This document shows positions 9,647-57,737 of a DNA stretch of 64,000 nt, one piece after another (position 1 is the stretch's first letter; each line of letters begins with the position of its first letter). Under the pieces are notes generated by a model. The model saw only the letters and a list, made by a program, of their open reading frames with translations, did no database searches and was not told the origin of the DNA. The stretch is taken from positions 1-64,000 of the IMG/VR virus record IMGVR_UViG_3300005326_000042; one strand, given 5' to 3'. The stretch comes from a virus (taxonomy: Duplodnaviria > Heunggongvirae > Uroviricota > Caudoviricetes). The position numbers were made by a program, and so were the translations under genes.

Positions 9647-9725
9647 GATAAGTCCCTCCTAAACTTTAATAAAAGAGTATCGCAAACCCATTGGTTTGCT
9701 TAGGAGCACTTATCTGTCTTGGTAT

Positions 9726-10016
9726 TTAACTCTTTCTAAATGGGTGATAGTTTATGCGTCCTCCCCAATTAGATTTAATTCCCCTCAAATTGAAAAATTG
9801 ATATAACCCGAATGTTACAACCATAGGTAGATTACCGAGGTTATAGTAATCATAAAGTAAAAATCCATTACTAAACAGCCACAAAAAGAATCCGAGACCT
9901 CGTAGAGTTTGACTTGTTCCTGATGTCAAAAACGCGCCTGCAATTGCTAAGACCATTGTAACATAGAAGAGAGGTTTTGAGAGGATGTCTTGGAGGATAA
10001 AATTAAAGTCAATCAT
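9726..10016 (-). CDS. small membrane protein
   Basis: Three hydrophobic segments. Confidence 0.4.
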   Translation of the reverse strand: MIDFNFILQDILSKPLFYVTMVLAIAGAFLTSGTSQTLRGLGFFLWLFSNGFLLYDYYNLGNLPMVVTFGLYQFFNLRGIKSNWGGRINYHPFRKS

Positions 10017-16680: not shown

Positions 16681-17646
16681 TTAGCTTTCGTTAGGATTAT
16701 AGATACAATCGGTTGCTTTCTTGTCGGGCCTAAGATTTTTTATCCTCGGATGTCTGAAGCGGCCCGTTTTAGGTATTCTTTCCTGTGCGGTAATTTCTAT
16801 GACTGTACCGATGTATTTCTCTTTGTTGTTGGACATGTCTTCTCTAAGGGCGTCACTCATCCCTGAGCAGTACCCGAATGATATTAATTTACCACTAAAA
16901 TATTGTCCAAACTCAACGGCCCCCACCCATCCGAGTTCTGCGAACTTCGAAATTGACTCAGTGCCATCGACTTTGGTAGTCATTTCTTTGGCATCTTTAA
17001 AATTTGTAACCACTACGTCCCATGTGGCAGATCGCTTCGCCTTGACCCATCCAGTTTTCTTGCCATAAGGTGCTGTGGTGTCTTTTAAAATTATTCCTTC
17101 GCCCCCGCTCTCAAGAACTTCTTCGTATAAAGATTTCTTGTCGCCTTTTACGATTTCTGTTATTGAAACATGATTTAAATCTAAATCTTCAAAGTACCCT
17201 TCGAGGACAGCCCTCCTATAAGACCAAGGCTTATCTCGGATATCCTGACCCTTATTCATCAAAACGTCAAATATTACGTAGTTCAACCATCCATTTTGAC
17301 GTTGAAACTCAATTGCGCGGGATGGGAGTGCGCCAGTTATCTTAGTTACATCCATGCTGTTGGAACCGAATACAAGCTCCCCATCGAAGATTGTTCCAGA
17401 AAAATCCCCATCTAGGTTATTATCTACGAAAATATTTTTCAAATGTGGGAAATTTTCTGTTTTTTCTGTGAATAAATTTGTCTTCTTAGATATGTGCCTG
17501 CTTGTGAACCTGTTTCCTCCAATACCGCAATGCATGAGTGCTCTGCTTCCATCGTATTTGATTTCACCAACATATTGCGAAGAATTCCACATACTTTCTT
17601 TCAATTTGCCGCGTGCCTGTGCGGGTTCGATTTGTAAGATTTCCAT
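16681..17646 (-). CDS. ATP-dependent DNA ligase (T7-like, compact)
   Basis: Motif I EIKYDGSR, motif IV EGIILKD, motif V WVKAKR; 321 aa. Confidence 0.7.
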   Translation of the reverse strand: MEILQIEPAQARGKLKESMWNSSQYVGEIKYDGSRALMHCGIGGNRFTSRHISKKTNLFTEKTENFPHLKNIFVDNNLDGDFSGTIFDGELVFGSNSMDVTKITGALPSRAIEFQRQNGWLNYVIFDVLMNKGQDIRDKPWSYRRAVLEGYFEDLDLNHVSITEIVKGDKKSLYEEVLESGGEGIILKDTTAPYGKKTGWVKAKRSATWDVVVTNFKDAKEMTTKVDGTESISKFAELGWVGAVEFGQYFSGKLISFGYCSGMSDALREDMSNNKEKYIGTVIEITAQERIPKTGRFRHPRIKNLRPDKKATDCIYNPNES

Positions 17647-17649
17647 AAA

Positions 17650-18972
17650 TTATTTCTCCTCTAATTTTCGCTTCTTTAGTTCCTTGTATTCTTCCTTAGT
17701 GTAATAAGATCTCCCTGAGTATATATAGTTTATGGATGTGTGGAAATTTTCTTCCCATCGTTGTCGGTCTCCATGCGTCGTTTTACTATGACACTTTTTA
17801 CAAAGTGGAACAAACATTACAATTTTATCATCACAACACGCATTTTTATCATATTCAACATGATGTACTGATAGTTCGCAGCCGTTCTCTTCTTTGCTTG
17901 TTCCACACATAAAACATTCGTTCTCAAAGAAATCTCTTACTCTCCGCCTCAAATCATTATTAAACTTAGGACAATATGGCTCAAAAGAGAGACCACCTTT
18001 CCAATTTGGGTTTTGTTCTCCTTTCTTTCCATACATTCCATTCTTTTCGCCCTTGTTAGATTCTGATATTTTAGCTTTAGTTTCCTCTGTATGACGTTTG
18101 CCAAAGAAAGTTGATTCTTCACCCCTTTTACCATAAAGGGGGTGCTCTTCACCTTTTCTCCTAAAAGCGGGGTCTTCCCTATTCTTTTGAGAAATAGACA
18201 TTTTCTTTTTAGTCTCGTCAGAAAACTTTTTCCCATAATTTGGAGATTTTTCACCACTTAAAACTTCCGAAAGTTTCTTTCTTGTTTCTTCTGGTAAATG
18301 TTTTCCAAACCAATGGTTTTTCTCACCTTTGTTCGCTTCAGAAATTTTTCTACGGGCTTCTGGAGAAGGGGAGTTACCTTTATTCTTCTCAGAAATTGTT
18401 TTCTTTGTTTCTTCTGTATGATGTTTTCCATACATACCGTTATTTTCTCCAGAATGGGCAATTGACATCTTTACTTTAGTTTCCTCACTCGCTTTCATTC
18501 CTCTATGGGCTTCCGCAATCTTCTCTCTATTTTCTGGATGACTCATTCTTTCTTTCGCTTTTTCAGAAAGTTTTTCTTTGGTTTCATCAGAAAGGTGTTT
18601 TCCAAAACGTGGATTTTCTTCTCCTTTTCTACCAAACATTGGATTATTTTCACCTTTATTAAGTTCTGCAAGTTTAGCTTTAGTTTCTTCCGTATGATGT
18701 TTCCCAGTCATTGGGCTTGGAACCCCATACATGGGATTATTTTCACCAGATAATTTCTGAGAAATGATTTCTTTTGTTTCTGGATGTTCTTGGTAATATT
18801 TTATTAAGGCTTCAGAAATCTTTCTTCCAATTTCTTTTGCGGGTTTTTTACCAAATAAGGGGTGATCCTTGCCTCTTCGTATCTTGTTTGGATTATCTTT
18901 GAAAAACTTCTTTTTAGATTCTGAAAGCTTTTTCTTAGATTCCTCACTCATCTTTTGTCCTTTTCTCATTCC
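17650..18972 (-). CDS. HNH homing endonuclease with multiple NUMOD3 DNA-binding repeats
   Basis: Repeated GKHHTEETK/GK.H.EE.K NUMOD3-like units; C-terminal HNH (HHVEYD...CKKCH); likely ATG at 18972 (track GTG at 18984). Confidence 0.65.
   Translation of the reverse strand, partial: GMRKGQKMSEESKKKLSESKKKFFKDNPNKIRRGKDHPLFGKKPAKEIGRKISEALIKYYQEHPETKEIISQKLSGENNPMYGVPSPMTGKHHTEETKAKLAELNKGENNPMFGRKGEENPRFGKHLSDETKEKLSEKAKERMSHPENREKIAEAHRGMKASEETKVKMSIAHSGENNGMYGKHHTEETKKTISEKNKGNSPSPEARRKISEANKGEKNHWFGKHLPEETRKKLSEVLSGEKSPNYGKKFSDETKKKMSISQKNREDPAFRRKGEEHPLYGKRGEESTFFGKRHTEETKAKISESNKGEKNGMYGKKGEQNPNWKGGLSFEPYCPKFNNDLRRRVRDFFENECFMCGTSKEENGCELSVHHVEYDKNACCDDKIVMFVPLCKKCHSKTTHGDRQRWEENFHTSINYIYSGRSYYTKEEYKELKKRKLEEK
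17990..18780 (-). repeat. intragenic tandem repeats encoding NUMOD3 units
   Basis: Periodic DNA repeats produce spurious ORFs in other frames (17949..18257, 18258..18461, 18505..18753). Confidence 0.5.
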
Positions 18973-19085
18973 TTCACCCTCCACGTTCCTTGGTCAAATC
19001 TGACCTTACATCGAGGGCAAGCTTTCGGATCGGCAACACGCGGAACCCATTTGTATAAACACTTAGGACATACTTTTTCTGTCAT
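18969..19085 (-). CDS. small zinc-ribbon protein, translationally coupled to HNH gene
   Basis: 38 aa; CPKC...CPRC; stop overlaps HNH ATG (ATGA); below track size cutoff. Confidence 0.4.
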
Positions 19086-24415: not shown

Positions 24416-25084
24416 TTAAAGTTTTCCCTCCCATTCCATCTTTCTTATCTTATAAAGATAATCCCTGAAAGGCTTCTCGTCTATTTCTAAAGGAAACGGG
24501 CTATCTTCAAACGCCTGATCAAGAGCGTCCAAGCACTTATTTACGTCTAATTCGCTTACGTCCAAGTTCACAATAGTCTCGCAAGGCTTAAAATTAAACT
24601 CCCATTTTGTTAGAAGATCCACTCCAAATAGAGCAGTCCTCGCGGCGGTTCTGTAACCTTTTCCACCAGCTAATCTAGGTCTCTTGGTTTCATCCAGCTT
24701 TTGACTTCCCGCCATGCCTTTTATTGCATAGTAATACTTTTTGGATGGATTATTAAGAACAATTTGTCTCAATTTTCTGAGCAGACCATAGTTCGAGGTA
24801 TTATCTTCTATAACTATAGAACTCGTCACATGCCACAAATAGTTTATGTTTCCTCTGAGGAGCTGATTTATTAGTTGTCCTATCTCAACGTAAGAGCAAT
24901 CACAATCTACTCCGTCTTTTAGAAAATGGGTTTGTGCCCATGTTTCCGGAATCCTATATCCAGCCAAAATATTCTTTGTTGGAACTACTCGACACGTAGA
25001 ATAATCGTGATCCGATATTCCCGACTTAAACATTCCCCACATAGAAGAACCATGTTCTGTAGTCCAGAGATCTTTAGGTTCCAT
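24416..25084 (-). CDS. Pol-beta-superfamily nucleotidyltransferase
   Basis: GS-x11-DHD signature (HGSSMWGMFKSGISDHD) near N-terminus; 222 aa. Confidence 0.5.
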   Translation of the reverse strand: MEPKDLWTTEHGSSMWGMFKSGISDHDYSTCRVVPTKNILAGYRIPETWAQTHFLKDGVDCDCSYVEIGQLINQLLRGNINYLWHVTSSIVIEDNTSNYGLLRKLRQIVLNNPSKKYYYAIKGMAGSQKLDETKRPRLAGGKGYRTAARTALFGVDLLTKWEFNFKPCETIVNLDVSELDVNKCLDALDQAFEDSPFPLEIDEKPFRDYLYKIRKMEWEGKL

Positions 25085-26228: not shown

Positions 26229-26486
26229 TCATAGTAACGTCCTCATATTGATTCTTATTAACTTAGGAGAAATCCTACCAGAATCATATTCAATTTCTCT
26301 ATTAATAACTTCATACGAATAACGATGTGAATCATCGCTAAATGATACGGTATCTCCCTTATTTGGTAATACGGGGTTCGCATAATTTGTACCATAAGCT
26401 AGATGGTTTACCAATACGTCTTCATTGTAATAATAGACATCGGTTCGCATCTTACTCACCCCAAACCTTCTTATAATCTTCTTCAC
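26229..26486 (-). CDS. hypothetical protein
   Basis: Track ORF. Confidence 0.35.
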   Translation of the reverse strand: MKKIIRRFGVSKMRTDVYYYNEDVLVNHLAYGTNYANPVLPNKGDTVSFSDDSHRYSYEVINREIEYDSGRISPKLIRINMRTLL

Positions 26487-26880
26487 ACTCTTTCAGCTCT
26501 TTATAAGTCTCCGTTGAAGCCGCGCGGCCATCGTCTACTTTATCTATGAGCTTCTTTCCTATTTCTCTATATTTTCTCAAGAGACCCCACAAAGCTTCAT
26601 TCTCACCCTCTAATATGAGTCTCAGATCTCCCTCGGTAAGCTCGGTTTCATCTGCGAGGACTTGGATTTGATTTATAAGAACATCTATACTTCCCTGGAC
26701 TCCGTGAATGTAATGCTCAATTTCCATAGATTCATCAGAAGAAAGAAAATAATCTATACTAGACTCGGCTAAAGCCAGAAAATTTTTACTTATGTAAAGA
26801 TGATCTGATGCTTTTTCTAATTCTAACCAAGCTTGACGTATAAGGACACAGGCTTCAATTCGGTCGCGCATTTTAATCAC
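26452..26880 (-). CDS. hypothetical protein
   Basis: Track ORF. Confidence 0.4.
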   Translation of the reverse strand: MIKMRDRIEACVLIRQAWLELEKASDHLYISKNFLALAESSIDYFLSSDESMEIEHYIHGVQGSIDVLINQIQVLADETELTEGDLRLILEGENEALWGLLRKYREIGKKLIDKVDDGRAASTETYKELKECEEDYKKVWGE

Positions 26881-27221
26881 TCCGTAAATACAACTTCTTT
26901 ATGATCCAACATTATACACTCTATTACATCCTGTCCCATCATAGTATCTGCTCTTATGGCCAACAGTGGACTATTTCTCTCCTCATAGAGATAAAATTCT
27001 CCATTTTCCTCTAGGTACAAATCTTTATTAAATTTTCCTAACATTGGAAAGCTCCGAATAATGCCTTTTACAGAATATGGAAGATCTTTAATTAGTATCC
27101 ATCTATCTTGTCCGGGCAAAGATGTCCTCCACCAATCTCCATTTGTTACCAACCTATTCTTTTCCACTATTGTCCTGAAGGTTGGATATTTTTCTTTTAG
27201 GGTGAATGATTTATCTTCCAT
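26877..27221 (-). CDS. hypothetical protein
   Basis: Track ORF. Confidence 0.4.
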   Translation of the reverse strand: MEDKSFTLKEKYPTFRTIVEKNRLVTNGDWWRTSLPGQDRWILIKDLPYSVKGIIRSFPMLGKFNKDLYLEENGEFYLYEERNSPLLAIRADTMMGQDVIECIMLDHKEVVFTE

Positions 27222-27294
27222 TTTAATTCCTCAAAATAAGTATTATCTTTCATAAGATAAATAGATTTCTCCGCTCGCGGGAAGCTCGCTGCGG

Positions 27295-27669
27295 TCACTC
27301 GTATCCCAAGTCAAACAGAAGTTGGGTCGCCCGCGCGAGGATACCGTCTAGGGATTGCCAGAGCATTTTTTCAAAGCTGCAGCTTCGCACTAGGTTTAGA
27401 AGATCATAATGAAAACCCAAGCCTTCATAATAATCACCTGTATTCCACCAATCATTTTCTTTTGGATATAGAATAAATTTTGCTATATTTCTGCCGTTAA
27501 CCTCCCTAAAACTTCTAACTTCGAGAGTCCAGGTTGCAGGTACAATTTGATACCAACCTTTTTCAACCAATTCTGTTAAATTATCTGCCTCATTATATTG
27601 CAAATACGCCACAAAATTCTCGCCCTTCGCTACGTAAAGGGTGTTGTTGATTTTGGAAAAGGACATCAT
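27295..27669 (-). CDS. hypothetical protein
   Basis: Track ORF. Confidence 0.4.
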   Translation of the reverse strand: MMSFSKINNTLYVAKGENFVAYLQYNEADNLTELVEKGWYQIVPATWTLEVRSFREVNGRNIAKFILYPKENDWWNTGDYYEGLGFHYDLLNLVRSCSFEKMLWQSLDGILARATQLLFDLGYE

Positions 27670-27953
27670 AGTTCTTTCTCCATTTCCTTTATCTTCCTCA
27701 AATACTCTTCTGCTTTCAGAATATGAAATTCTGCATCATTTAATTGACATCTATATTCGCACTTTAAAGTATCAATTCTTCTGTAAATTACTAGCTTTCT
27801 TAACCACTCTACAGATTTTAAAACTCCATCCTGAGTTGTGTCACTCAACCAGAATCCAATCATTTCTGCGGGGTCTAGTGTGGTTTTGGGTGAATGACGG
27901 ATCTCGTACTTCATGCGATGATATAAGGGAGAGGATTTATTGCGGCGGGACAT
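27666..27953 (-). CDS. hypothetical protein
   Basis: Track ORF. Confidence 0.4.
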   Translation of the reverse strand: MSRRNKSSPLYHRMKYEIRHSPKTTLDPAEMIGFWLSDTTQDGVLKSVEWLRKLVIYRRIDTLKCEYRCQLNDAEFHILKAEEYLRKIKEMEKEL

Positions 27954-28324
27954 TAATATCCCTTCCTCAGTTGTCTATCCACAAACTTAGGATGTAAATC
28001 TCCTCCCTCAATCGTGATTTCGTCTGCGGGCCAGAGCCTGCCGTAACACTCTTCAGGACCATATTTTACCATAGTTCTGAAGGTATCAAGGAAAGTCCCT
28101 TCTGGATTTAAACAAAATCCACATGACAACATCCCATGCTGGATTATTTCACCGTCTTTGTCTGTGATGGCAAAGATTCCAAAATGCCGACTGGATACCT
28201 CGTCTTTGTACATCCACTTTCCGATATGGATAGACCAGATCTTCTCGTCTATTTCTTCTTCGATGAGTTTTTCAAACCAATAGTCATCCCTTTTCCAGAG
28301 ATCTAGTAATTGAGAGAGTTTCAT
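27953..28324 (-). CDS. hypothetical protein
   Basis: Track ORF. Confidence 0.4.
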   Translation of the reverse strand: MKLSQLLDLWKRDDYWFEKLIEEEIDEKIWSIHIGKWMYKDEVSSRHFGIFAITDKDGEIIQHGMLSCGFCLNPEGTFLDTFRTMVKYGPEECYGRLWPADEITIEGGDLHPKFVDRQLRKGY

Positions 28325-28773
28325 AGTTGCTCCTTATTTTTCATCTCCTCTTTAATAAATTCATCCTCGCAAAGATCAATCCACATTTGTCCATACTTTT
28401 CACATTCTCTAGAACAGACTATATCTTCATCCCAACCAGTAACACAGCACAATCTATTAATCCATCCGTTCCACTTATGTTCTATTGGCTTTCCACAAAT
28501 GAGACAAATCTCTTCTTTTGATTGGAACTTAGGACAAATTGTGGCAAAATCCTCTGGATTGAAATAATGAGATTGTCCGTTCGCAGTAAGAATTTTATGA
28601 ATTCCCCTAAGAGCCTCAAAATGTGTTATCTCTTCAAGGAACTTCTTATAATCTTCCTCGATCTCTTTAAACATTTCCTCGTCTTCGCATCCAGCAGATG
28701 AAGATAATCCAACAGAGGAATCACCTTCATCTATGTAGGCGAATTTGCAGTGAAAACATGTAGCGGGAATCAT
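28321..28773 (-). CDS. Cys-rich zinc-binding hypothetical protein
   Basis: Several CxxC pairs. Confidence 0.4.
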   Translation of the reverse strand: MIPATCFHCKFAYIDEGDSSVGLSSSAGCEDEEMFKEIEEDYKKFLEEITHFEALRGIHKILTANGQSHYFNPEDFATICPKFQSKEEICLICGKPIEHKWNGWINRLCCVTGWDEDIVCSRECEKYGQMWIDLCEDEFIKEEMKNKEQL

Positions 28774-29159
28774 GCGGAATCACCTAAGATTTCTTTTATC
28801 TTTCTCATTTCCTCAAGAGTACAATATTCCCATTTCTGCTTACTCAAACAAACAACCAAATTATATCTTTCATTTATATCCAAAATTCCTTGGGTTATTG
28901 GCACTATTCTATAATTATCGTCCCAAGTATCGGATATTTTTCTAATTCCGCTTGTTGAGTCTATAAGATCTCCATTATCAAGTCTGATTGCACCTTTTGG
29001 AGTAATCTTCTTTACTTTTGCGAAATTGTAATAACTTACAAATCTTGGGCCATATGCTATTTTGTCTCCAGGCTTGAGAGACTTAAGCCAGAGGTAGTAT
29101 TCGGGAACGGTCATTCTACCACACTCCCCTTTTCTCCAAATCTTGGGTAATCTAACCAC
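28770..29159 (-). CDS. hypothetical protein
   Basis: Track ORF. Confidence 0.4.
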   Translation of the reverse strand: MVRLPKIWRKGECGRMTVPEYYLWLKSLKPGDKIAYGPRFVSYYNFAKVKKITPKGAIRLDNGDLIDSTSGIRKISDTWDDNYRIVPITQGILDINERYNLVVCLSKQKWEYCTLEEMRKIKEILGDSA

Positions 29160-29410
29160 TCAATACTTCTGCCCTTAATATCTTTTATATTAGGTTTTCC
29201 GTCTCTTACAAAGAGGTTATTAAAGAGATGATAAGTTTCTTCCTCGGTTAAATCGATTCGTCCTCTATTCCCATCTTTGTCGGTTACTATGAAACTGACG
29301 TAGATTTCAGAGATTTTGACTTGTTCTGCGGGCATTTTTAAATCCTCCTTTTGACGCTCGACCTCGCTGTTGCTCGGCGTCGCTATGCCTTCGCGATTCT
29401 GTTGAATCAC
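29111..29410 (-). CDS. hypothetical protein
   Basis: Track ORF. Confidence 0.35.
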   Translation of the reverse strand: MIQQNREGIATPSNSEVERQKEDLKMPAEQVKISEIYVSFIVTDKDGNRGRIDLTEEETYHLFNNLFVRDGKPNIKDIKGRSIEWLDYPRFGEKGSVVE

Positions 29411-29416
29411 TACGGT

Positions 29417-29917
29417 TCACACCAGCTTCAAACTCTTCGTAATCTTCTTCAACTCATCGGTCTGTTTAAACCCAATACAAGTCATCGTCCCTAGAGGAAC
29501 TTCGGTAAGTCCTGCATCTTTTATGTAGACAACATCATCAAGAGTTGCAAGTTCCTTAAATGTCTCATGGTCTGCCTTAAGAATTATTGCTCTTCCAAGA
29601 CAGTTATATTTGTCCGCGAGCTGCATTGCTATATGGGAAATTTGTGCAGCAATTTTTCCTTTAGACATCTTCAAGCTTTCGTCGATTACGTAGATGAAGG
29701 TTGTGGAGAGGTCAACTTGTCTTGATATCATATTATCTTCAGAATAACGGTGTCTATGACAAAAACAAGTTCCAGCTATTGCGCCGCAGATTCCACAACG
29801 AAAAATATCGTGGTGGCCCGCGAATCCAAAATGTTCTTGACAATAAAAGGCGTTTCTATCTGAGTCAAATGTTCCAGGTTTACCACATTTAACGCATTTA
29901 TTATTTTCGTTATTCAT
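29417..29917 (-). CDS. zinc-finger fused to peptidyl-tRNA hydrolase PTH2 (archaeal/eukaryal type)
   Basis: N-terminal CVKCG...CQEH...CGICG...CFCHRH; then PTH2 core TFIYVIDESLKMSKGKIAAQISHIA and ...DAGLTEVPLGTMTCIGF. Confidence 0.65.
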   Translation of the reverse strand: MNNENNKCVKCGKPGTFDSDRNAFYCQEHFGFAGHHDIFRCGICGAIAGTCFCHRHRYSEDNMISRQVDLSTTFIYVIDESLKMSKGKIAAQISHIAMQLADKYNCLGRAIILKADHETFKELATLDDVVYIKDAGLTEVPLGTMTCIGFKQTDELKKITKSLKLV

Positions 29918-30156
29918 TTTAGTTACCTCAAACTACCTATTATCTCTCAAGGTATTTAATCTTTTCGTGAGCGAGAATTGGTGTATCTTTGATAAGCAAA
30001 GAAGATAAATAGCCTTAGAGATCATAATAGTACTAAAATCGAAGCATACCAAGAGACACCCAAAACTGGGCGACAACCTGCCTAACTTGGAGGCCGGGAA
30101 GGGCTTCCTCATCAGAACCAGCCTGGGCTGTCTCTCGGAAAGGATGTGTTTACAAC

Positions 30157-30699
30157 ATGAATCTAGGGCTTAAATCTATAAATACTTTGTGTTCCGACTC
30201 CCAACCCGGAGTCATAGTTTATAAATGGGATCTATTGAAAGCAACCGCTTGTGTTTGCACCCGAAATATTAACAGGATGTTGGAGAGACTTGAGAATAAA
30301 GGAGCAAAGGTTCTATACATCTATCCAGTTCAAGAAAGGGATACTCATGGTCGAAAGCTATGGAGATTCCTGCGGGCGAGAGTGAAGGTGGTGGGTGTAG
30401 ATGGGTATACGTTTTATTTTACATCGCGCGATGAATCTCTATTCAAAGTACTATCTGAGTCCTGGACTGGAGATACCTTGAAATCTAAAGTACAACTTAT
30501 GAAAGCGACGGTTAGAAAGGCAATAAAAGAAGTTGCTTTAGAGAAAGGTCATGTGAGTGTCTTAGACATAGTTTCTCGGACTCACAGGATAGTTGATGGA
30601 TTAGAGATAGAAAAGTGGCTGTACGCTTTTGTAAATGAAGGCGAAATAAAAATACAGAGATTTTCAGATTGGTTTGCAAGTAGGATAATACTGCTCTGA
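30157..30699 (+). CDS. hypothetical protein (isolated plus-strand gene)
   Basis: 180 aa track ORF between two minus blocks. Confidence 0.45.
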   Translation: MNLGLKSINTLCSDSQPGVIVYKWDLLKATACVCTRNINRMLERLENKGAKVLYIYPVQERDTHGRKLWRFLRARVKVVGVDGYTFYFTSRDESLFKVLSESWTGDTLKSKVQLMKATVRKAIKEVALEKGHVSVLDIVSRTHRIVDGLEIEKWLYAFVNEGEIKIQRFSDWFASRIILL

Positions 30700-31008
30700 G
30701 AATGCGTGGGATCAATCAAATAAAAGACTTTTAGTGGATAACATCTATTTTTGGTAAGATTGTACACTCTTTATAATTTATACTTAAATTTTCAATGTTG
30801 TATTTAATCTGGCGCGAGGGTTAGACCTTTGCTTCTGGTCGAACTCTTCAGGAATTTCTAATGGTTGGAAGTATACGTGGGCTAGAATAAAATATATCTC
30901 GGATTTTATAGAAGAAATATTATATTTATAAAAATCCGATAGATTTTATATTTGGGAATAGGAGTTCATTTTATTTAAGGATATCGGTGGCCCAGGAGAG
31001 GGTCTTAT

Positions 31009-31218
31009 CTAGCAGAGTGTAAGCGGAGTTCTATTGGAAATTGAGGGTTCTTCCTTTTCGAAGAACAACCAATACGTTGCCGCGAGGATTCCTAATATCG
31101 CTACTCCGTAGAGTTCCCAAATTCTGAAGTAGAAAAATCCGAAGCAGAAGAGGTAGATCTGTGCAGCAGACACGTATTTAATGATCTTTAAGTGAAGAAG
31201 AAGATTGGGGAAAGTCAT
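31009..31218 (-). CDS. small membrane protein
   Basis: Two hydrophobic helices. Confidence 0.4.
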   Translation of the reverse strand: MTFPNLLLHLKIIKYVSAAQIYLFCFGFFYFRIWELYGVAILGILAATYWLFFEKEEPSISNRTPLTLC

Positions 31219-31499
31219 ATCTTGCTATCCACCAAGTCCTTAAGATATTTCTTCGTAGCTTTATGGACCATATTGGATACTCTCCAAATAGGGACATCTT
31301 CAAGAGTCAAAGTTTCTCTATTAAATATTTTAATATTTTGAGTCTCCGCCGGATGTCTATTGGCAAAATGTTCTGCCATTGCATTAACTATTCCCTCTCT
31401 ATCTCCATAGATTACTGTACTTCCGAGGCTCGCGATGTAGTATTCACTTGGAATGCCATTGGGAAGTTCTACTAAGATTGGGTCTATCGAAATTGACAT
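31215..31499 (-). CDS. hypothetical protein
   Basis: Track ORF. Confidence 0.4.
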   Translation of the reverse strand: MSISIDPILVELPNGIPSEYYIASLGSTVIYGDREGIVNAMAEHFANRHPAETQNIKIFNRETLTLEDVPIWRVSNMVHKATKKYLKDLVDSKI

Positions 31500-31668
31500 A
31501 GATCTACTATTATCTCTCTTAATACTTATAGGTTGCGAGAGATGAAAGCATTACTTAAGTAAAAACTTAAAGTATTACTAAAGCCTTGTATGAAAGTTCT
31601 ATAAAACAACCGAAACATTTATATAGCTTGAGGTATATTTTATCTTAACTCTTTTATAGGTGAGTTGA

Positions 31669-31851
31669 ATGAGACCAATGATAAATGATGTTATGGTTTC
31701 TTTTGGTTTGTCAAACGACATAAAAACCAGAATGGAAACGCTTGCGCAGATTAAAGGATTATCCAGTTCAGCATTGATAAGAATGTTGATCCTAGAGAAA
31801 TATTCTGAAGAAATGAAGGCTGGGAATATACCCGAAGAAAAGGTGGTTTGA
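31669..31851 (+). CDS. ribbon-helix-helix (CopG-like) DNA-binding protein
   Basis: VMVSFGLSNDIKTRMETLAQIKGLSSSALIRMLI; SD AGGTGA 6 nt upstream. Confidence 0.5.
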   Translation: MRPMINDVMVSFGLSNDIKTRMETLAQIKGLSSSALIRMLILEKYSEEMKAGNIPEEKVV

Positions 31852-32544
31852 ATGAGTCGATTTCATGATGAGTTTTTCAGGAATGGAAGTCCAGCACACG
31901 ATTCTTTAATGATAAAGTGTATGTCTGAGAAAGGAATTAAGAAGATAATTGAGGAGTTGAATATAGAGAATACAGAGGTAAAACCTTTCTATGAAATATT
32001 TTGTAAGAAATCTTCAAATTACAGAAACGTTACAATATGTCAATGTGACAATTTCGAAAACAGAAAGAGGGCTTTTCTTGGCACAAAGAAGGAGTGCGAG
32101 TGGCGATGGGGTTGTGAGAATAAAAAAACGTGCGGTTTTGAAATAGAAGAACCAAAACCATATATCATTGAGGCAAGATCGATTACACATCTTTCTAAAC
32201 CAAATATATCAAAAGAAACTGAAGTTATTATTAAAAATGGAAATTTTATAATTGGATACGCGGACGGCCTAATCTCTGTTGCATATTATGCGAGTGAAGA
32301 TCTAGAGGTGGAAGAACGCCAAATAAATCATAGGAGCGATTCTATTGATTTTAAAATATTAATTGAAGTTAAACCAGAATTAACAAGTATTGGTGACACA
32401 ATTAGACAAATAAAAACCTATAAGAGTCTTTTGAGGAATAGCAATATTGTTTCGGTAATAGTAACTTATACCACTCTAGATGAGGCCGCACTAGAATATT
32501 TAAAAGGAGAAGGAATAATAGCTATCGTTTGGAAAGATAATTGA
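31852..32544 (+). CDS. zinc-finger / PD-(D/E)xK nuclease-like protein (tentative)
   Basis: Cys cluster then GYADG...D..ILIEVK resembling D-x(n)-E-x-K. Confidence 0.35.
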   Translation: MSRFHDEFFRNGSPAHDSLMIKCMSEKGIKKIIEELNIENTEVKPFYEIFCKKSSNYRNVTICQCDNFENRKRAFLGTKKECEWRWGCENKKTCGFEIEEPKPYIIEARSITHLSKPNISKETEVIIKNGNFIIGYADGLISVAYYASEDLEVEERQINHRSDSIDFKILIEVKPELTSIGDTIRQIKTYKSLLRNSNIVSVIVTYTTLDEAALEYLKGEGIIAIVWKDN

Positions 32545-32554
32545 GGTTCTTAAA

Positions 32555-35335
32555 ATGTCTGAAGAAAAGAAAATTGCAGGTGCGGCAAACACCTGCCAAG
32601 AGGATTTTATTCCTGATAATAGTGATGCTTTACAAGTAGATAAATCTTTCGGTCAAAAGGTTCCAAAGATTGAGAGACCCGCTACCGAGGAAACTATTAA
32701 ACACTACAAGAACCCCAAAGTAATGGCGGTTGTCAGAGAATTTTGCGAAGACCCAAATGGTTGGAGAGGTTGTAACGCCGGAACACATTGGTATAGATCC
32801 ACTCAAAACGGGAAAGTAAGGCTTAGGAATTTTCTAGACGATTATATAGATAGTATTGAACACAATAGAGTTCTGTATGCTACATTAGATTTCTTTGAGA
32901 AAAACTTAAAATCCAAAGACGAAGCTATTAAACCAGGAAGCAACAAACCTATACATCCAATAGGAAGTCTTGAAAATTTAATTTCTTATACTTTAACCTG
33001 TGATATTGACTTAAAAGGATCTGTAGATGATCCTTCTTCAAAACTCGCTTTAGAGTGTGCAGCACAATTTTTTGTAGACTACTTGAAAAAGCGCGGAGTT
33101 TTTAGAAGCGTATACACTCTTTTTAGTGGAAACGGCATATATATTTTAATCCACCATAATCTCTTTGCAGTAGAAAATAGAAATTATGAGCAGAGAGAAA
33201 AATTCTTTGGATCTTTAATTACAGCATATAATATGTTAATTGATAAAATTGAAACAGAGTTTTTCAAAATTCATCCAGAATATAAAGAATTAATAGCGTT
33301 TGATACTGTAAACAATAAGAAAAGAAAATTAAAATGTATTTTTAGTATTCACGCAAAGAAAAATTATGTAGTAATTCCATTAGATCCATCTAATATTAAA
33401 ATTGATTTGGAAAAAGCTAAATTACCTTTATCAGAAGAAGTAATTTTTCTTGGAGAAAAATGGTACAAAGATTTTCATCTCGGAGAAAAAGAAGTTCTCC
33501 TCTCTGTTCTAAAAGAATATATAGATTTAGACCGAAAGAGAAATTCTCACAAGAGAGGAGAGAAAGGAGAAAACGAGAAGGAATTACCTCCAAGAAGATG
33601 TGAACAACCCATTCTCACAGATGATATGCCTCCTTGTATTCAAACAATCATATCTGATCTACAACCAAAAGGTGCTACAGGAGCACTAACTTTTCTGGCA
33701 AGCTATCTATACGAAGTTGGATGGTCCGAAGAAGAGGCTTTTAAGCTCTGGAGTTCTCTAGCCGACAAGGTATGGAAGGATTACAGATACTTTGATGAAC
33801 ATTTCGGAGAACGCTGGACTCCATCTTGCGAAAAATTAAATAATGGTTTCCAATATCCCCGACCAGGAATCGGACATTACTGTAAGAAAGACAAATTCTG
33901 TAAACATTGTTCTAGACCGACAGAATATACACTGAAAGTCCCGAATTTCTCTTGGAACGATAAGGGTAATGGCGAAAGAATGGCATTTTATTTTGGAGAC
34001 ACGATAAAATATTGCGCACAATCGAGAGGATGGTATGTGTGGGATGGAAAGAAATGGTCCGCAGACGAGACGAAAGAGTTTATGAAATATGCAAAGAAGG
34101 TTGTCAGAAATATGTATAACGAGGCTTCAGAAATAGAAAACGATGATCTTAGAAAAAAGTTTGTAAAATGGATTCATTCAAAATGCGAAACTGCGGTAGG
34201 CATAAAACATATGGTAGAAATGGCAGAATCTGAGGATGAGATTTCCATTAGCCTAAAACAAATATATTCTGAATCAAAATATTTTAATCTAGAAAATGGG
34301 GTTCTGAATACAGAAAACCTAGAGATACTTCCACACGATCCATCTAGACTTATTACAATGATATCGAAGGTGGCCTACGACCCAAATGCGGATTGCCCAA
34401 GATGGAAAGAAACAATTAAATTAGTATTTGAAGAAAAAGAAAGTTTAATGAAATATTTCCAGAGAGTTTGTGGCTATATTTTAACTGGAAGACCAATTGA
34501 GCAGGCATTTTTCTTCTTATATGGAGAGAATGGAAAGAATGGAAAATCCACTTTGATGAATGCAATTCTTTATCTCATGGGAGATTATGGATTGAAAGCG
34601 GAAATTAAATCTTTCTTGGAGAGCGGAAATAACATGTCCATCAGAAACGATTTAGCTAGAATGGCAGGAAAGAGATTTGTTTGGGCATCAGAACCAGATG
34701 AAGGAAAGAAATATTCTATGGAAATTTTAAAACAAATCACAGGAAGCGAGCCTATTACTTGCCGTTTTCTTCACCAAGAATATTTTGAATATTTGCCTCA
34801 ATTCAGTCTTTTTATTTCTGCAAACAACAGACCAACCATTTCTGAAAAGAGCGATGCGGCTTGGAGAAGGGTTCAGAGCATTCCTTTTAATAAAACAATT
34901 CCAGAAGAAATGAGAGATAAAAACATAGATATATGTCTACAAGCCGAAGCTTCGGGAATTTTTAATTGGATGCTAGAGGGACTTAGAGAATATTATAAAA
35001 TCGGATTAAATTCTCCTTCAGAGGTATTAGCATCAATTAAAGAATATAAGGAAGATATGAACTCATTTGAGAACTTTATAAGAGACTGCTGCGTTACAAA
35101 AGACGCTAAATCAATTGCAATATTAAATTCTGAACTTTACGAGAACTATAAGTCATACTGTGAAGACCTCGGAATTGTTAGCAAAGATTCATTAAAATCT
35201 TTTATAAAACAGATGACTAAGCTCGAAGAAGAAGGAAAGGTTTCCCGAATTACTGTACATAAACAAACCGGATGGTTGGGGATTCACCTGAAAGATGACA
35301 TGGAGAGAAACACAATTGAAATTAGAAATCCTTAA
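32555..35335 (+). CDS. primase-helicase 1 (D5/P4-alpha-like SF3 NTPase)
   Basis: 926 aa; Walker A YGENGKNGKST, Walker B region, large N-terminal primase-like region; SD GAGGT. Confidence 0.65.
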   Translation: MSEEKKIAGAANTCQEDFIPDNSDALQVDKSFGQKVPKIERPATEETIKHYKNPKVMAVVREFCEDPNGWRGCNAGTHWYRSTQNGKVRLRNFLDDYIDSIEHNRVLYATLDFFEKNLKSKDEAIKPGSNKPIHPIGSLENLISYTLTCDIDLKGSVDDPSSKLALECAAQFFVDYLKKRGVFRSVYTLFSGNGIYILIHHNLFAVENRNYEQREKFFGSLITAYNMLIDKIETEFFKIHPEYKELIAFDTVNNKKRKLKCIFSIHAKKNYVVIPLDPSNIKIDLEKAKLPLSEEVIFLGEKWYKDFHLGEKEVLLSVLKEYIDLDRKRNSHKRGEKGENEKELPPRRCEQPILTDDMPPCIQTIISDLQPKGATGALTFLASYLYEVGWSEEEAFKLWSSLADKVWKDYRYFDEHFGERWTPSCEKLNNGFQYPRPGIGHYCKKDKFCKHCSRPTEYTLKVPNFSWNDKGNGERMAFYFGDTIKYCAQSRGWYVWDGKKWSADETKEFMKYAKKVVRNMYNEASEIENDDLRKKFVKWIHSKCETAVGIKHMVEMAESEDEISISLKQIYSESKYFNLENGVLNTENLEILPHDPSRLITMISKVAYDPNADCPRWKETIKLVFEEKESLMKYFQRVCGYILTGRPIEQAFFFLYGENGKNGKSTLMNAILYLMGDYGLKAEIKSFLESGNNMSIRNDLARMAGKRFVWASEPDEGKKYSMEILKQITGSEPITCRFLHQEYFEYLPQFSLFISANNRPTISEKSDAAWRRVQSIPFNKTIPEEMRDKNIDICLQAEASGIFNWMLEGLREYYKIGLNSPSEVLASIKEYKEDMNSFENFIRDCCVTKDAKSIAILNSELYENYKSYCEDLGIVSKDSLKSFIKQMTKLEEEGKVSRITVHKQTGWLGIHLKDDMERNTIEIRNP

Positions 35336-39980: not shown

Positions 39981-40005
39981 AATTTAGTATTATATGGGAA
40001 AGTAT

Positions 40006-40875
40006 TTAAGCCTTTCTAAGTTTGTGACTTTTTCTTATAGCTTCTCCCTTTCTACTACAATTACAGTTTGCACATTCAAGTCTATAATCCTCTTTTAAAG
40101 ATTCGGGCCAGCCTTGTTGACGAAAATTGGAGAGCAATGCCGTACTATTGCGCTCTCCATTTCTTCTCCGCTCCGCGCCATCGTTATGTATGTGAGAGAT
40201 AGTTAAAAATTTTAATTCCGTTATTCCACATGGACAACCACCAAAGAATTCAAAAGCTTCTTTCCAGAGTTTAGCTGAGTATCTTTGATTTTTAGTTTGC
40301 AATTCCCAAGGTAAATCCAAATATTCCCTTCTTCTCGCCAAATTATGATTCCAACATAAAACTCTCAGATTAGATAATTTATCTTTCGGATAAGTATCAT
40401 TAGTAACGGCTAGACGTAAGGAATGTCCACTATATCCCTTCTTCTTGTCGATATATCCTGTCTCATCGATATGGTCTACGGTTAAATAATCGGGATTAGT
40501 CACATTACAAAGAGAACATTTACAGCCACCCAAGATTTCAAGTACTTGAATTTTATTTTCTTCGCGATATTTTTTATGGTGTTCTTTTATTTTATCTTTA
40601 TTTTCATTATAATACCTTTTCCCGTATTCTTTATTATGTTCTTTATTTTCCTTATAATACTTTTTTCCACATTCTTTCCTGTGCTCTTTATTTTCTTCAC
40701 GATATTTTATATCGTATTCTTTTTTGTGTTCTTTGTAGTTTGGATTATCCCAATTAGATATCGTTTGTTGACACACTCCACATTCCTTAGCTATTTCTCC
40801 CTGACTTTTCCCAAAAACATTAATTTGGAGATCCAACCATTCTTTATTTTGATAAATAGGTTTTTCTTCACTCAC
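40006..40875 (-). CDS. HTH + double HNH-motif endonuclease, paralog 1
   Basis: N-terminal KEWLDLQ...IAKECGVCQQTISNW HTH; K/E/Y repeats; GGCKCSLC...VDHID...LRVLCWNHN and GGCPCG...ISHIHND...ECANCN; GTG start after AGGAGGT. Confidence 0.6.
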   Translation of the reverse strand: MSEEKPIYQNKEWLDLQINVFGKSQGEIAKECGVCQQTISNWDNPNYKEHKKEYDIKYREENKEHRKECGKKYYKENKEHNKEYGKRYYNENKDKIKEHHKKYREENKIQVLEILGGCKCSLCNVTNPDYLTVDHIDETGYIDKKKGYSGHSLRLAVTNDTYPKDKLSNLRVLCWNHNLARRREYLDLPWELQTKNQRYSAKLWKEAFEFFGGCPCGITELKFLTISHIHNDGAERRRNGERNSTALLSNFRQQGWPESLKEDYRLECANCNCSRKGEAIRKSHKLRKA

Positions 40876-43759: not shown

Positions 43760-44224
43760 ATGACTTATTTTGGTTTATTGAAAGGAAAGACCGTCCTCGG
43801 AGTCGTAAAAGAATGGCTCATGGACGATGACGGTCATGGGCAGGTGGATGTGGTGTCCACAGCAGCGCCAGCCACCCTACCTTTGCCCACAGGCGCGGCT
43901 ACGGAATCGACTTTGGCGGCGATGAACGGGAAGCTCGGTGCTCTCAGCAGAACTCCCCGCTCGGGTCAGCAAACGGTAGCCGCAGCGGGAACAGAAGTCG
44001 CTCTAGGTGCATCCCAAGTCTATAGGGAAGTTACAGTGATTGCCAACAGCGACAACACCGGAAACATCTATATTGGTAACGACGGGACTGATCATGTATC
44101 AAGTACCACGGGCGGCAAGCTTCCAGCGGGCGGATTTGCCACTTTCCACAATGTAGATATCTCTAAGATATTTGTAGATGTTGCGGTCTCCGGCGAAGGT
44201 GTCTCCTGGTTTGGTGAGATTTGA
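43760..44224 (+). CDS. fibre-associated structural protein, paralog A
   Basis: GQQTVAAAGTEVALG...VTVIANSDNTGNIYIGNDGTD...GEGVSWFGEI; paralogous to 44473..44865. Confidence 0.5.
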   Translation: MTYFGLLKGKTVLGVVKEWLMDDDGHGQVDVVSTAAPATLPLPTGAATESTLAAMNGKLGALSRTPRSGQQTVAAAGTEVALGASQVYREVTVIANSDNTGNIYIGNDGTDHVSSTTGGKLPAGGFATFHNVDISKIFVDVAVSGEGVSWFGEI

Positions 44225-44472
44225 TGTTCGGCCAGCATCACTGCTCAAAATGTGGCCTAAAATATAACAATGCGTCAGTAGACGGGCGAGATTACACTTA
44301 CACCTGCAAGAACTGCTGCCAAGTTGAAACCTTCCACATGGATGGTACTAGCACCACATTCGACTGCCCGATATGCGCGAAGACTGCATTGAATGCAAAT
44401 TTCGCGCCCAATAACGTGAACAGGAAGATGGATTTCTCGGATAAATATAACTCAATGTATCGGGTGATTTGA
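44221..44472 (+). CDS. zinc-finger small protein between fibre paralogs
   Basis: CSKCG...CKNCC...CPICAKT. Confidence 0.4.
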   Translation: MMFGQHHCSKCGLKYNNASVDGRDYTYTCKNCCQVETFHMDGTSTTFDCPICAKTALNANFAPNNVNRKMDFSDKYNSMYRVI

Positions 44473-44865
44473 ATGGCAGATAGCAATTTGAAGATTCTGA
44501 ATGCGGATGAAGATCCGAAATGGCAGAAGGTGAAGGGGGCGCAAACGGAGGGAGATCCCGGATCGCCGTACGTGTGCCTGGATGGGAGCAATACCCCGAA
44601 GAGTGGACAGAAAGCAGTGGCATCAGCAGGTACTGCGGAAGCCCTGGGAACGACCCAAGTATTCAAGCGGGTTACAGTGGTTGCCAATGCCGATAATACA
44701 GGAGATGTGTATGTTGGCAATGACGGTGCTGACGATGTCAGCAGCATCACGGGAATAATCTTACCCCCGGGCGGCTGGTTCGACTGGTTCTTTGTGGATA
44801 TCGCTGATCTCTATGTAGATGCTGAAGTATCTACTGAAGGCGTGTCTTATGGGGGAGAAATATGA
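44473..44865 (+). CDS. fibre-associated structural protein, paralog B
   Basis: GQKAVASAGTAEALG...VTVVANADNTGDVYVGNDGAD...TEGVSYGGEI. Confidence 0.5.
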   Translation: MADSNLKILNADEDPKWQKVKGAQTEGDPGSPYVCLDGSNTPKSGQKAVASAGTAEALGTTQVFKRVTVVANADNTGDVYVGNDGADDVSSITGIILPPGGWFDWFFVDIADLYVDAEVSTEGVSYGGEI

Positions 44866-47039: not shown

Positions 47040-47080
47040 GGCAAAAGGAGAACCCCAGTTCTCCTAAGTCCCTCATTTCA

Positions 47081-47485
47081 TCATTTTTGGCTGAGAACTT
47101 CCGTATTAGTCCTATGTGATATCATTAGGCTCTTCAGTGCAGCGTTCTGCGACTCTATGATATCCAAGGCCCGCTTTGACCAATCTGCTACTGATTCTCC
47201 TGGCTTCCCCGCACATTCTTTGAGACGGTCGTAATCCGCTGCATATACCCAAATCATTTTCTTTTCATCCGACTTCTTTTTCGCGGATAAAAACATGCAC
47301 TTATCGAAGGATACTTGCCCTGGATACAATTTAAAATCCCTTAAATTGATCTCCTCTATATCCGGATAGAAGGTGCAATTGATAAAACGCACTTCGGCGC
47401 TCTCGTTTATAGCATCCGCGATTATTGTTTCGCACTCCGATAGGTTCAGAACCTCATCAAATCGTCTTATTATTTTTGGCTCCAT
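47081..47485 (-). CDS. hypothetical protein
   Basis: Track ORF. Confidence 0.4.
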   Translation of the reverse strand: MEPKIIRRFDEVLNLSECETIIADAINESAEVRFINCTFYPDIEEINLRDFKLYPGQVSFDKCMFLSAKKKSDEKKMIWVYAADYDRLKECAGKPGESVADWSKRALDIIESQNAALKSLMISHRTNTEVLSQK

Positions 47486-47665
47486 GTAGAAAACTTATAA
47501 TCTTTATAATATTTATAACCATCGTACAACATAAGTCCAAAAGTACATGACTATTCAGCAAAGTCGATCATTCCAATCATTATAGGAATACATAGATCCT
47601 AGAGCGCGCCCCTATGCGGCAGATAGCGAAAATAGGAGTATAAGAAAAGGAGAATAAAAAATAGA

Positions 47666-47935
47666 CTAAAGTCCTAGATGCCGAAGAGTCGAGGATTTCC
47701 TTCGCTTCGGTCTCTCCTTCTGAATCTGATACGCAGGCCGCTCGACCTCTTTCGGCACAGCGTCCACGATGTCGGACTTGCCACAGTTCGGGCACGGTCT
47801 GCCCTCTGGTTCAACCTCGTGGATCTTGTCGGGCTTTAGGGTGGGCATTCTAATGCCTCTGTGGAGGTGGGTCCACTGGAGGAAGTGATGCTCGCAGTCG
47901 AGGCAGCGTTTCTCCTGGACGCCGACGATCTTCAT
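47666..47935 (-). CDS. zinc-ribbon protein (GC-rich operon)
   Basis: Start at internal ATG (MKIVGV) overlapping upstream stop (ATGA); CLDCEHH...CPNCG. Confidence 0.4.
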   Translation of the reverse strand: MKIVGVQEKRCLDCEHHFLQWTHLHRGIRMPTLKPDKIHEVEPEGRPCPNCGKSDIVDAVPKEVERPAYQIQKERPKRRKSSTLRHLGL

Positions 47936-48075
47936 GGCTTCCTCTTGCGAAGATCTATCTCCGCTTGAAGGGCCTTGCGACATACGGCGGCCACGTTGAT
48001 CTCCTCCAGATCCTCTAGGGATTTTTGCATCTCTTCGGAGATCTGGAAGGTTTTTGGGATGGGGTATTTCGCCAT
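47932..48075 (-). CDS. ribbon-helix-helix-like small protein (GC-rich operon)
   Basis: Internal ATG (MAKYPIPKTFQISEEMQKSLEDLEE...) coupled to neighbours. Confidence 0.35.
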   Translation of the reverse strand: MAKYPIPKTFQISEEMQKSLEDLEEINVAAVCRKALQAEIDLRKRKP

Positions 48076-57509: not shown

Positions 57510-57737
57510 TTCTTAATCACCTGAAAAGAGACTTATTTAGAAAAGATATGTTAAAGTATTTAAAGATATTGGTTCTTTCAATCTCTCCTAATTTTCTCCC
57601 AGCAAACTCTGCCATACCTACCGCCGAAAATCTTAGTTATTTTCCTTCTGCAACGGGCACATCGCCTTGGAGCAGAAGATTCTTTGGGTTTTTCGGTGGA
57701 TTGCATATATGGAGATTATCTGGCTTAGGATAAATAG

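Follow-up and report, generated by a model that had tools for sequence, protein, structure and literature searches.

A single open reading frame (ORF) of a large tailed virus combines an apparent peptidyl-tRNA hydrolase of the PTH2 type with an N-terminal cluster of Cys and His residues. This locus raises the questions of whether the two parts belong to one protein, what such a protein could do during infection, and whether the type of its hydrolase says anything about the host. The sequence analyzed here, hereafter referred to as the window, is a stretch of 64,000 nucleotides (positions 1 to 64,000 of the IMG/VR record IMGVR_UViG_3300005326_000042) with ∼38% GC that comes from an anaerobic metagenome. 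The interpretation favored here, with a probability of roughly 0.6, is that the ORF encodes a virus-type shortened PTH2 hydrolase that in one lineage has been joined in frame to a zinc-binding gene formerly located immediately upstream. The ORF and its associated features are as follows:

29417..29917, minus strand: complete ORF of the putative zinc-module/PTH2 fusion protein (from the ORF list; identical to protein P0001)
29747..29917, minus strand: Cys/His-rich module, residues 1 to 57, whose sole homologue, P0060, is the product of a free-standing gene
29732..29746, minus strand: junction YSEDN, residues 58 to 62, between the end of the homology to the zinc gene and Met63
29417..29731, minus strand: predicted PTH2 domain of the short viral type, residues 63 to 166 plus the stop codon (PF01981, phrog_1866, AlphaFold, and Foldseek)
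29925..29929, minus strand: Shine-Dalgarno sequence GAGGT, read from the sequence, 7 nt upstream of the ATG at 29917
29952..29959, minus strand: promoter-like box TTAAATAC within the divergent intergenic region (29918-30156), 42 nt ahead of the start codon

The PTH2 domain and its relatives

The ORF starts with an ATG codon and runs through 166 codons to a TGA stop. The PTH2 core motifs quoted in the preliminary description, KMSKGKIAAQISHIA and DAGLTEVPLGTMTCIGF, are indeed present and occupy residues 83 to 97 and 134 to 150, respectively. The profile match by which that description proposed to judge the family assignment was also obtained: PF01981 covers residues 75 to 166 (profile positions 4 to 115 of 115) with an E value of 2e-12 and a score of 47.8 bits, compared to the gathering score of 23. 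The protein also matches phrog_1866 (E = 4.7e-10, profile positions 8 to 125 of 126). Among the sequences in the PDB, phmmer retrieved seven solved Pth2 proteins at E ≤ 0.025 (E ≤ 5.5e-5 for all but one), including the enzymes from Thermoplasma acidophilum, Pyrococcus horikoshii, Archaeoglobus fulgidus, and Sulfolobus solfataricus and human Bit1, and a profile of the clade to which the viral domain belongs (59 relatives; see below) matches seven solved Pth2 sequences end to end with E values from 1e-18 to 2e-13. The AlphaFold model built on the 59-sequence alignment has pLDDT values of >90 for residues 70 to 166. A Foldseek comparison with the PDB returned 13 matches with E ≤ 0.001, every one of them a Pth2 structure with a probability of 1.0; the PTH2 domain of the window is 25 to 32% identical to these structures, with target-normalized TM-scores of 0.51 to 0.65. 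Judged by these sequence and model comparisons, residues 63 to 166 form a PTH2-family domain, and this call is solid.

The predicted α/β fold is the same as that of the cellular Pth2 enzymes (PDB entries 1XTY from S. solfataricus, 3ERJ from A. fulgidus, 1WN2 from P. horikoshii, 1RLK from T. acidophilum, 2ZV3 from Methanocaldococcus jannaschii, and 1Q7S, human PTRH2/Bit1), and the motifs GKGKxAAQxxH and DAGxTQ/E are common to the cellular and viral sequences. Alignment of the clade profile with 1xty_A pairs Lys18, Asp86, and Thr90 of the S. solfataricus enzyme with K88, D134, and T138, so that the equivalents of all three residues are kept in the window protein. All 59 sequences share seven residues (G87, K88, Q92, H95, D134, G136, and T146), and T138 is nearly invariant. 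In published mutagenesis of the S. solfataricus Pth2, Lys18 and Asp86 reportedly were needed for catalysis; K88, D134, and T138 are regarded here as the candidate catalytic residues of the viral domain. Compared to the cellular enzymes, however, the window domain is shorter: all alignments have a gap of 12 to 16 residues directly after helix 1, where the cellular proteins have a W...GQxK segment. The domain also falls far short of both NCBIfam equivalog cutoffs, scoring 46.5 bits against 126 for NF003314 and 40.8 bits against 82 for TIGR00283. By sequence, therefore, this is not a canonical cellular Pth2, and because of the deletion and the sub-equivalog scores, its substrate or activity may differ from those of the cellular enzymes.

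A search of 5.8 billion proteins yielded 58 PTH2 relatives with 31 to 74% identity, mostly 101 to 114 amino acid residues long, and a further 18 relatives were found in the IMG/VR viral contigs, all of them matching only from about residue 60 onward. In contrast, the best matches among 185,579 species-representative genomes are ordinary full-length archaeal Pth2 proteins (from Poseidoniales, Methanomassiliicoccales, Nitrososphaeraceae, and others) with 28 to 38% identity, and no relative with more than 38% identity was detected in that genome set. As the cellular matches are all distant full-length Pth2, the short clade (∼102 residues) was found in these searches only on viral or metagenomic contigs. 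The shortened form is also carried by cultured phages of bacteria, including Aeromonas phages, Shewanella phage 1/4 (S14_92, 112 residues), and Pseudaeromonas phage KLEP7 (gp109, 93 residues), the last two of which are annotated as peptidyl-tRNA hydrolases. These tailed-phage proteins, together with those of the jumbo phages and phrog_1866 in general, are encoded by single-domain accessory genes, sometimes near tRNA-repair genes. They have the same shortened connection between helix 1 and strand 2 as the window protein and are ∼40% identical to it, but none of them carries a zinc module. The subclade of the window protein itself (50 to 74% identity) comes from metagenomes only, without cultured members.

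In a neighbor-joining tree, the window protein is the sister of the metagenomic protein P0002 (bootstrap support of 92) and belongs to the short viral clade (bootstrap support of 53), which joins two bacterial-phage PTH2 proteins weakly (bootstrap support of 38) and is separate from both the cellular archaeal and the giant-virus clades. The low support values (38 to 54) are what would be expected from only about 100 aligned positions. The phylogeny that had been proposed for placing the protein among archaeal or other Pth2 enzymes puts it in a viral clade, away from the cellular archaeal Pth2, and no result assigns the gene to Archaea.

The Cys/His-rich module and its junction with PTH2

The first 57 residues of the protein include 8 Cys and 6 His residues. 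The pattern reported in the preliminary description is confirmed: the Cys and His residues are arranged as C8xxC11, C26xxH29, C41xxC44, and C51xC53H54xH56, with H35 and H36 in addition, which gives 12 candidate ligands (C8, C11, C26, H29, H35, H36, C41, C44, C51, C53, H54, and H56). The module probably binds two or three Zn ions. No known family could be assigned to it: there was no match to any Pfam or PHROG family, and no Pfam zinc-finger family was retrieved at E < 0.1. The module was also compared to zinc ribbons and treble-clef zinc fingers, in which two CxxC/H knuckles flank a β-hairpin. In the AlphaFold model of the full-length protein, the C8xxC11 and C26xxH29 pairs flank a low-confidence hairpin (residues 14 to 26, with strands at 14 to 18 and 23 to 26; pLDDT of 57 to 75), residues 29 to 57 have pLDDT values below 50, and a model of the module alone, based on two sequences, has a pLDDT of 42.

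A word-indexed search of the same 5.8 billion proteins found a single homologue of the module, the free-standing 64-residue protein P0060, which is encoded on the ENA contig ERZ27250894 k141_7911 (4.8 kb) and on the JGI contig 3300028602 Ga0265294_10152135 (1.7 kb). A two-sequence alignment scan of the IMG/VR and JGI metagenome contigs revealed no further homologues, nor did a phmmer search with residues 1 to 64 against 1.84 billion cluster representatives (one per 50% cluster), although the latter search also missed the query's own protein and is therefore a weak negative. No paralogue of the module was found at E < 0.4 in the window or in the compared loci. P0060 is 77 to 81% identical to residues 2 to 57 and retains all 12 of the Cys and His residues, an outcome with a chance probability of ∼0.07, given 9 substitutions in 50 positions. 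Over 51 codons, the module and the P0060 genes differ at 38 of 153 nucleotides, distributed as 9, 4, and 25 over the first, second, and third codon positions, and the dN/dS value (NG86) is about 0.05, with dS being saturated. The low ratio and the third-position bias identify the module as a real coding sequence that strong purifying selection maintains in this frame.

The P0060 gene belongs to another virus. It has its own 10-residue tail and a stop codon, and at locus L025 its end overlaps the start of the next gene as ATGA; this next gene codes not for a PTH2 but for a head-morphogenesis protein of the SPP1 gp7/Mu F type; the rest of its contig is unrelated to the window. The free-standing state of P0060 beside a head gene argues for an independent function of the module, and the presence of a zinc gene of this kind in a structural gene block makes it less likely that the halves of the window protein are intrinsically linked. 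Each of the 58 free-standing PTH2 homologues begins where Met63 lies in the window protein, and a Cys-rich extension was found neither in these 58 proteins nor in the best 120 of 574 profile matches, and no cellular Pth2 found in the searches carries such a module. The statement that the zinc module is not part of canonical PTH2 is thereby borne out.

At the junction, DNA similarity to loci L025 and L026 is lost after codon 57 (HRHR), five residues ahead of Met63. Because the homology of the module stops so close to the universal PTH2 start, the architecture, judged by sequence, unites two otherwise independent genes in a singleton fusion that is known from one genome only. A second contig, ENA ERZ27247099 k141_268337, does encode the identical protein (P0001), but this contig is 100% identical to the window in DNA sequence over positions 26417 to 32039 (5.6 kb) and so is not an independent confirmation. 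Shifted to the +1 frame, the junction sequence is AAG ATA ATA TGA, so that a TGA stop codon overlaps the ATG codon of Met63 in the arrangement ATGA, which is typical of coupled phage genes and is the same stop/start overlap in which the zinc gene of locus L025 ends. As the simplest history, we infer that the fusion originated by loss of such an overlap: a small zinc gene would have been located directly upstream of pth2, and a change of frame would have removed its stop codon.

The same arrangement could also mean that the cell makes two separate proteins, either because the single ORF stems from an assembly or sequencing indel in an ATGA-overlapped gene pair or because PTH2 is produced mainly from an internal start at Met63. 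Outside this genome, each half always exists as a gene of its own, Met63 is the exact start of all homologues, the ATGA overlap is still legible in the +1 frame, and the only other copy of the fusion has identical DNA, all of which is what one would expect of two genes. The related contig L006 is a further case in point: its PTH2 also has an in-frame upstream extension, a different one, and yet a strong internal AAGGAG precedes the PTH2 ATG. In the window, however, the reading frame is open and continuous, Met63 is preceded only by a weak GAAGA, whereas the start of the fused ORF has the strong GAGGT at optimal spacing, and the same sequence is given by two assemblies whose contigs end at different places. 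Short-read k-mer assemblies seldom introduce indels. On balance, separate proteins appear unlikely, if still worth bearing in mind. The claim of a PTH2 fused to a zinc finger, made in the preliminary description, can therefore be kept with regard to the single continuous ORF, but has to be qualified in that each half is an independent gene in other genomes, the fusion is known from one genome only, and Met63 is a possible internal start.

The upstream region contains the TTAAATAC box, which recurs 29 to 56 nt upstream of several gene starts of the window, has purine-rich 5′ flanks, and is overrepresented between genes (6 intergenic regions compared to 0.7 expected); it may serve as a promoter. 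A sigma-70-like site within the ORF (29756-29727) was considered as a promoter for a short form of the protein and was rejected because its −10 hexamer includes the ATG codon of Met63.

Genome context and possible function

The window represents a virus that has no close relative and no near-identical DNA in the phage collection that was searched. In addition to the gene discussed here, it encodes an anaerobic ribonucleotide reductase (NrdD), an SNF2 helicase, an ATP-dependent DNA ligase, a D5-like primase-helicase, a Prim-Pol protein, thymidylate synthase, dCTP deaminase, a radical SAM/SPASM enzyme, and a beta-helix tail spike. Its RNA-related genes code for two Rnl2-like RNA ligases and a nucleotidyltransferase-like protein. 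The PTH2 gene heads a long leftward block of small ORFs of unknown function, beside the divergent intergenic region.

All-against-all clustering of the ORFs from 15 loci of different viruses detected no recurrent neighbor of PTH2. Genes for a GNAT, a DUSP-like protein, and a zinc ribbon were each seen next to PTH2 at single loci and therefore have the value of anecdotes. As there are no conserved neighbors in these 15 loci, the gene context lends no functional support to any particular role, and PTH2 behaves as a free-moving accessory gene.

The best reading of the PTH2 part is that of an active hydrolase because the fold and the candidate catalytic residues are conserved across a divergent viral clade. 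Like the cellular Pth2, it most likely hydrolyzes peptidyl-tRNA or N-acyl-aminoacyl-tRNA, as far as its sequence indicates: it would cut the ester bond between the tRNA and a peptide or an N-blocked amino acid. The substrate would be peptidyl-tRNA that has dropped off or become stranded on ribosomes, and the reaction would return tRNA to the pool and free the ribosomes, either during heavy viral translation or upon damage by the host to tRNA or to translation. A role in translational rescue or manipulation, as suggested in the preliminary description, is plausible, and the two Rnl2-like ligases and the nucleotidyltransferase-like gene fit a tRNA/RNA maintenance toolkit. The benefit could consist in general maintenance, in countering the acetylation of aminoacyl-tRNA, or in clearing peptidyl-tRNA after tRNA cleavage. 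In the fused protein, the module would most likely either tether the enzyme to RNA, to the ribosome, or to another protein or be a neutral passenger. The enzymatic activity, the metal binding, and the benefit to the virus are all properties that we infer, and a literature search found no experimental study of any viral PTH2, including activity data for the short form.

Some known factors offer partial parallels. Vms1/ANKZF1 and ArfB/ICT1 are ribosome-directed factors that release peptidyl-tRNA and in which a targeting module accompanies the catalytic domain. The window protein would be similar to them in concept only, as their catalytic folds are unrelated and the module has no sequence or structural similarity to theirs. 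A closer counterpart in gene content is DNTV-1, a tailed virus of archaea that, like the window, has a viral PTH2 and two T4 Rnl2-like RNA ligases, with its archaeal-type Pth2 adjoining the two ligases (bioRxiv 10.1101/2025.02.15.638363). Compared by description, DNTV-1 differs from the window in having a nanohaloarchaeal (Nanohaloarchaeota) host and a tRNA-rich genome and in that no zinc fusion has been reported for it.

A more specific proposal is that the viral PTH2 serves in counter-defense rather than in housekeeping, mainly removing the N-acetyl or other blocks that are put on aminoacyl-tRNA by GNAT toxins of the TacT/AtaT type or clearing peptidyl-tRNA after tRNA cleavage by immune nucleases, with the zinc module directing it to the target. 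Bacterial Pth reverses the action of TacT, which yields acetylated aminoacyl-tRNA (PMC9241777), and Iyer et al., who described PTH2 as typical of the jumbo phages of bacteria, placed the phage PTH2 among RNA-repair and conflict systems and proposed in 2021 that it frees ribosomes after tRNA cleavage (PMC7824862). The RNA ligases in the same genome, the location of the KLEP7 PTH2 gene three genes from those for CCA-adding enzymes, and the position of the window gene at the head of a leftward run of small genes, next to a divergent intergenic region, would also agree with such a role. However, the literature search found no experiment that ties a viral PTH2 to a defense system, and conserved neighbors are lacking in the 15 loci. 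As a specific function, counter-defense must be considered rather improbable, although it does not exclude the favored interpretation because the chemistry would be identical.

More speculative still, and correspondingly doubtful, is the idea that the zinc module docks PTH2 on ribosomes, on large subunits with stranded peptidyl-tRNA, or on a specific tRNA. The fused protein would then be a virus-encoded nascent-chain release or rescue factor acting on the ribosome or a dedicated antidote to a tRNA-directed immune effector of the host, and the free-standing zinc protein would be a small translation- or RNA-binding factor of host takeover.

The opposite possibility is that the fold has degenerated or has been repurposed, with the hydrolase activity lost and the protein acting as a tRNA- or ribosome-binding factor. 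The deletion after helix 1 with the loss of W...GQxK, the scores below both equivalog cutoffs, and the TM-scores of only 0.51 to 0.65 could all be explained in this way. However, across the 59 divergent sequences, the GK..Q..H and DAG.T motifs, together with the Lys and Asp that are candidates for catalysis, are invariant or nearly so, as expected of an active enzyme under selection, which makes the loss of activity very unlikely.

Host and implications for viral PTH2

The preliminary description took the PTH2 type as a clue to the domain of the host. This idea fails, as PTH2 is encoded both by phages of bacteria (PMC7824862) and by an archaeal virus (bioRxiv 10.1101/2025.02.15.638363), and the PTH2 type is therefore silent on the host. 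Other genes of the window give a mixed signal. In the virus database, the best matches of the primase are from a Methanosarcinales virus and from Bacillus phage phi105, NrdD is closest to that of Methanobacterium virus PhiF1 (27% identity), and the DNA ligase is closest to the ligases of Alicyclobacillus and Bacillus phages (40% identity) and of Brevibacillus phages; the Prim-Pol protein and the tail spike had no matches in the protein searches for a host signal. A Shine-Dalgarno-like motif precedes 76 of the 128 ORFs. The window also contains a tRNA-like gene (55963-56076) whose anticodon arm carries an insertion of 42 nt, which could hint at an archaeon; no bulge-helix-bulge structure could be drawn by hand at this insertion. 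The TATA-like appearance of the TTAAATAC box upstream of several genes could be a hint of the same kind. Altogether, the host evidence is mixed between archaeal and bacterial virus matches.

Capture of a host Pth2 by an archaeal virus, with the PTH2 type as a host marker, is the least credible explanation, for which one could cite the archaeal origin of the best cellular matches, the methanogen viruses among the best matches of the primase and NrdD, the tRNA-like gene with its insertion, and the TATA-like TTAAATAC, but the archaeal matches are full-length canonical Pth2 proteins with only 28 to 38% identity, the window protein groups with the short viral clade and weakly with the bacterial-phage PTH2, PTH2 is common in phages of bacteria, and the nearest relatives of the DNA ligase are those of Alicyclobacillus, Bacillus, and Brevibacillus phages. 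Were the host an archaeon, the PTH2 gene would still not be a recent capture from it.

The occurrence of PTH2 in viruses was known before: the gene is widespread in jumbo and other large phages, in archaeal viruses, and in giant viruses. What is new is the singleton fusion with the zinc module. None of the points that follow from this locus opens a long-standing question on its own. One of them concerns annotation, in that the label “archaeal/eukaryal-type” attached to a viral PTH2 should not be taken to imply an archaeal host. Another is that the gene contributes to defining a compact viral clade of PTH2 proteins (∼102 residues), in which a helix of the cellular enzyme is missing but the candidate catalytic residues are kept and which would make a convenient minimal enzyme. 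Finally, if the fusion is functional, it would point to a partner, whether RNA, the ribosome, or a protein, for the orphan small zinc proteins of viruses.

Short PTH2 genes and small Cys-rich proteins

A second in-frame N-terminal extension of a short PTH2, unrelated to the Cys/His module of the window, is present at 3770-4321 of L006, a locus on IMGVR_UViG_3300028907_000003, and in the protein search relatives P0007 and P0012 (14 sequences belong to the P0012 cluster). This extension is hydrophobic and transmembrane-like, comprises ∼80 residues, and continues into the PTH2 domain without a stop; the internal PTH2 ATG is immediately preceded by a strong AAGGAG. Such extended proteins may represent membrane-anchored isoforms or read-through from the upstream gene. 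The following open reading frames (ORFs) are neighbors of free-standing short PTH2 genes:

L002: 4152-4568 and 5312-5770
L005: 4583-4996
L006: 4337-4597

A weak match to GNAT acetyltransferases is found two genes upstream of PTH2 in L002 and a weak match to DSPc/Rit1-DUSP-like phosphatases immediately upstream of it in L005, and small CxxC...CxxC zinc-ribbon ORFs are located immediately downstream of it in L002 and L006. None of these neighbors was found to recur among the loci compared.

The window itself encodes one more Cys-rich protein:

28324-28773 (-): Cys-rich ORF, 150 aa, with CFHC ... CLICGKP ... CC ... CSREC

This ORF, which yielded no family match, is part of the leftward gene block that also contains PTH2, and is located three genes further downstream. 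The genome seems to be rich in small predicted zinc-binding proteins.

Other genes of the window

Several additional genes could be assigned to families:

550-1308, 6804-7526, and 24419-25084 (all -): two paralogous RNA ligases (PF09414) and a nucleotidyltransferase-like gene (phrog_388)
17653-18984 (-): homing-endonuclease-like ORF, 444 aa (six NUMOD3 copies, 227 bits)
32555-35332 (+): D5-like primase-helicase, 926 aa
41304-42122 (+): caspase-domain ORF, 273 aa (Pfam Peptidase_C14, E=9e-20)
44862-47036 (+): tail spike, right-handed beta-helix/pectate-lyase-like, 725 aa

The two RNA ligases, the nucleotidyltransferase-like protein, and PTH2 make up a group similar to the tRNA/RNA-repair sets reported for jumbo phages and for DNTV-1, an archaeal tailed virus (bioRxiv 10.1101/2025.02.15.638363). 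The primase-helicase contains an extra region similar to the large subunit of eukaryotic/archaeal primases (PF04104, E=9e-7), and among the phage collection it aligns over the greatest length (629 aa, 31% identity) with Caudoviricetes sp. vir515, which is assigned to Methanosarcinales. The homing-endonuclease-like ORF is directly upstream of an ATP-dependent DNA ligase gene (16684-17646), and the caspase-domain ORF is predicted to be a virus-encoded caspase-like protease. The tail spike, which had no tblastn match among 50,697 phage records, is encoded inside a GC island (44000-48000; 47% versus ∼38% in the rest) and may be a recently acquired receptor-binding protein or depolymerase.

Promoter-like motif and tRNA-like gene

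The motif TTAAATAC occurs at 18 sites within the window and is enriched between genes (6 intergenic regions versus 0.7 expected). Examples include:

9722-9729 (-), 29952-29959 (-), 40002-40009 (-), 57556-57563 (-), and 61671-61678 (+): TTAAATAC

Several start codons have the motif 29 to 56 nt ahead of them, and a purine-rich stretch (GAAAAGA, GAAAGAG) often precedes it. It could be a T4-late-like -10 element or a BRE/TATA-like promoter of the archaeal type. In the intergenic DNA of the window, no enrichment was seen for the classical TTGACA hexamer.

Another feature that could bear on the host is the following:

55963-56076 (-): tRNA-like gene (Rfam RF00005, 30.9 bits; gathering score, 29)

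Its D and T arms are canonical, and 49 nt take the place of the 7-nt anticodon loop. At a relaxed threshold only, ARAGORN calls tRNA-Trp(CCA) and places an intron of 42 nt at position 31/32. This insertion is too small for a group I intron, and attempts to draw a bulge-helix-bulge for it by hand yielded none. An archaeal-type intron, if true, would be a much better clue to the host than PTH2.
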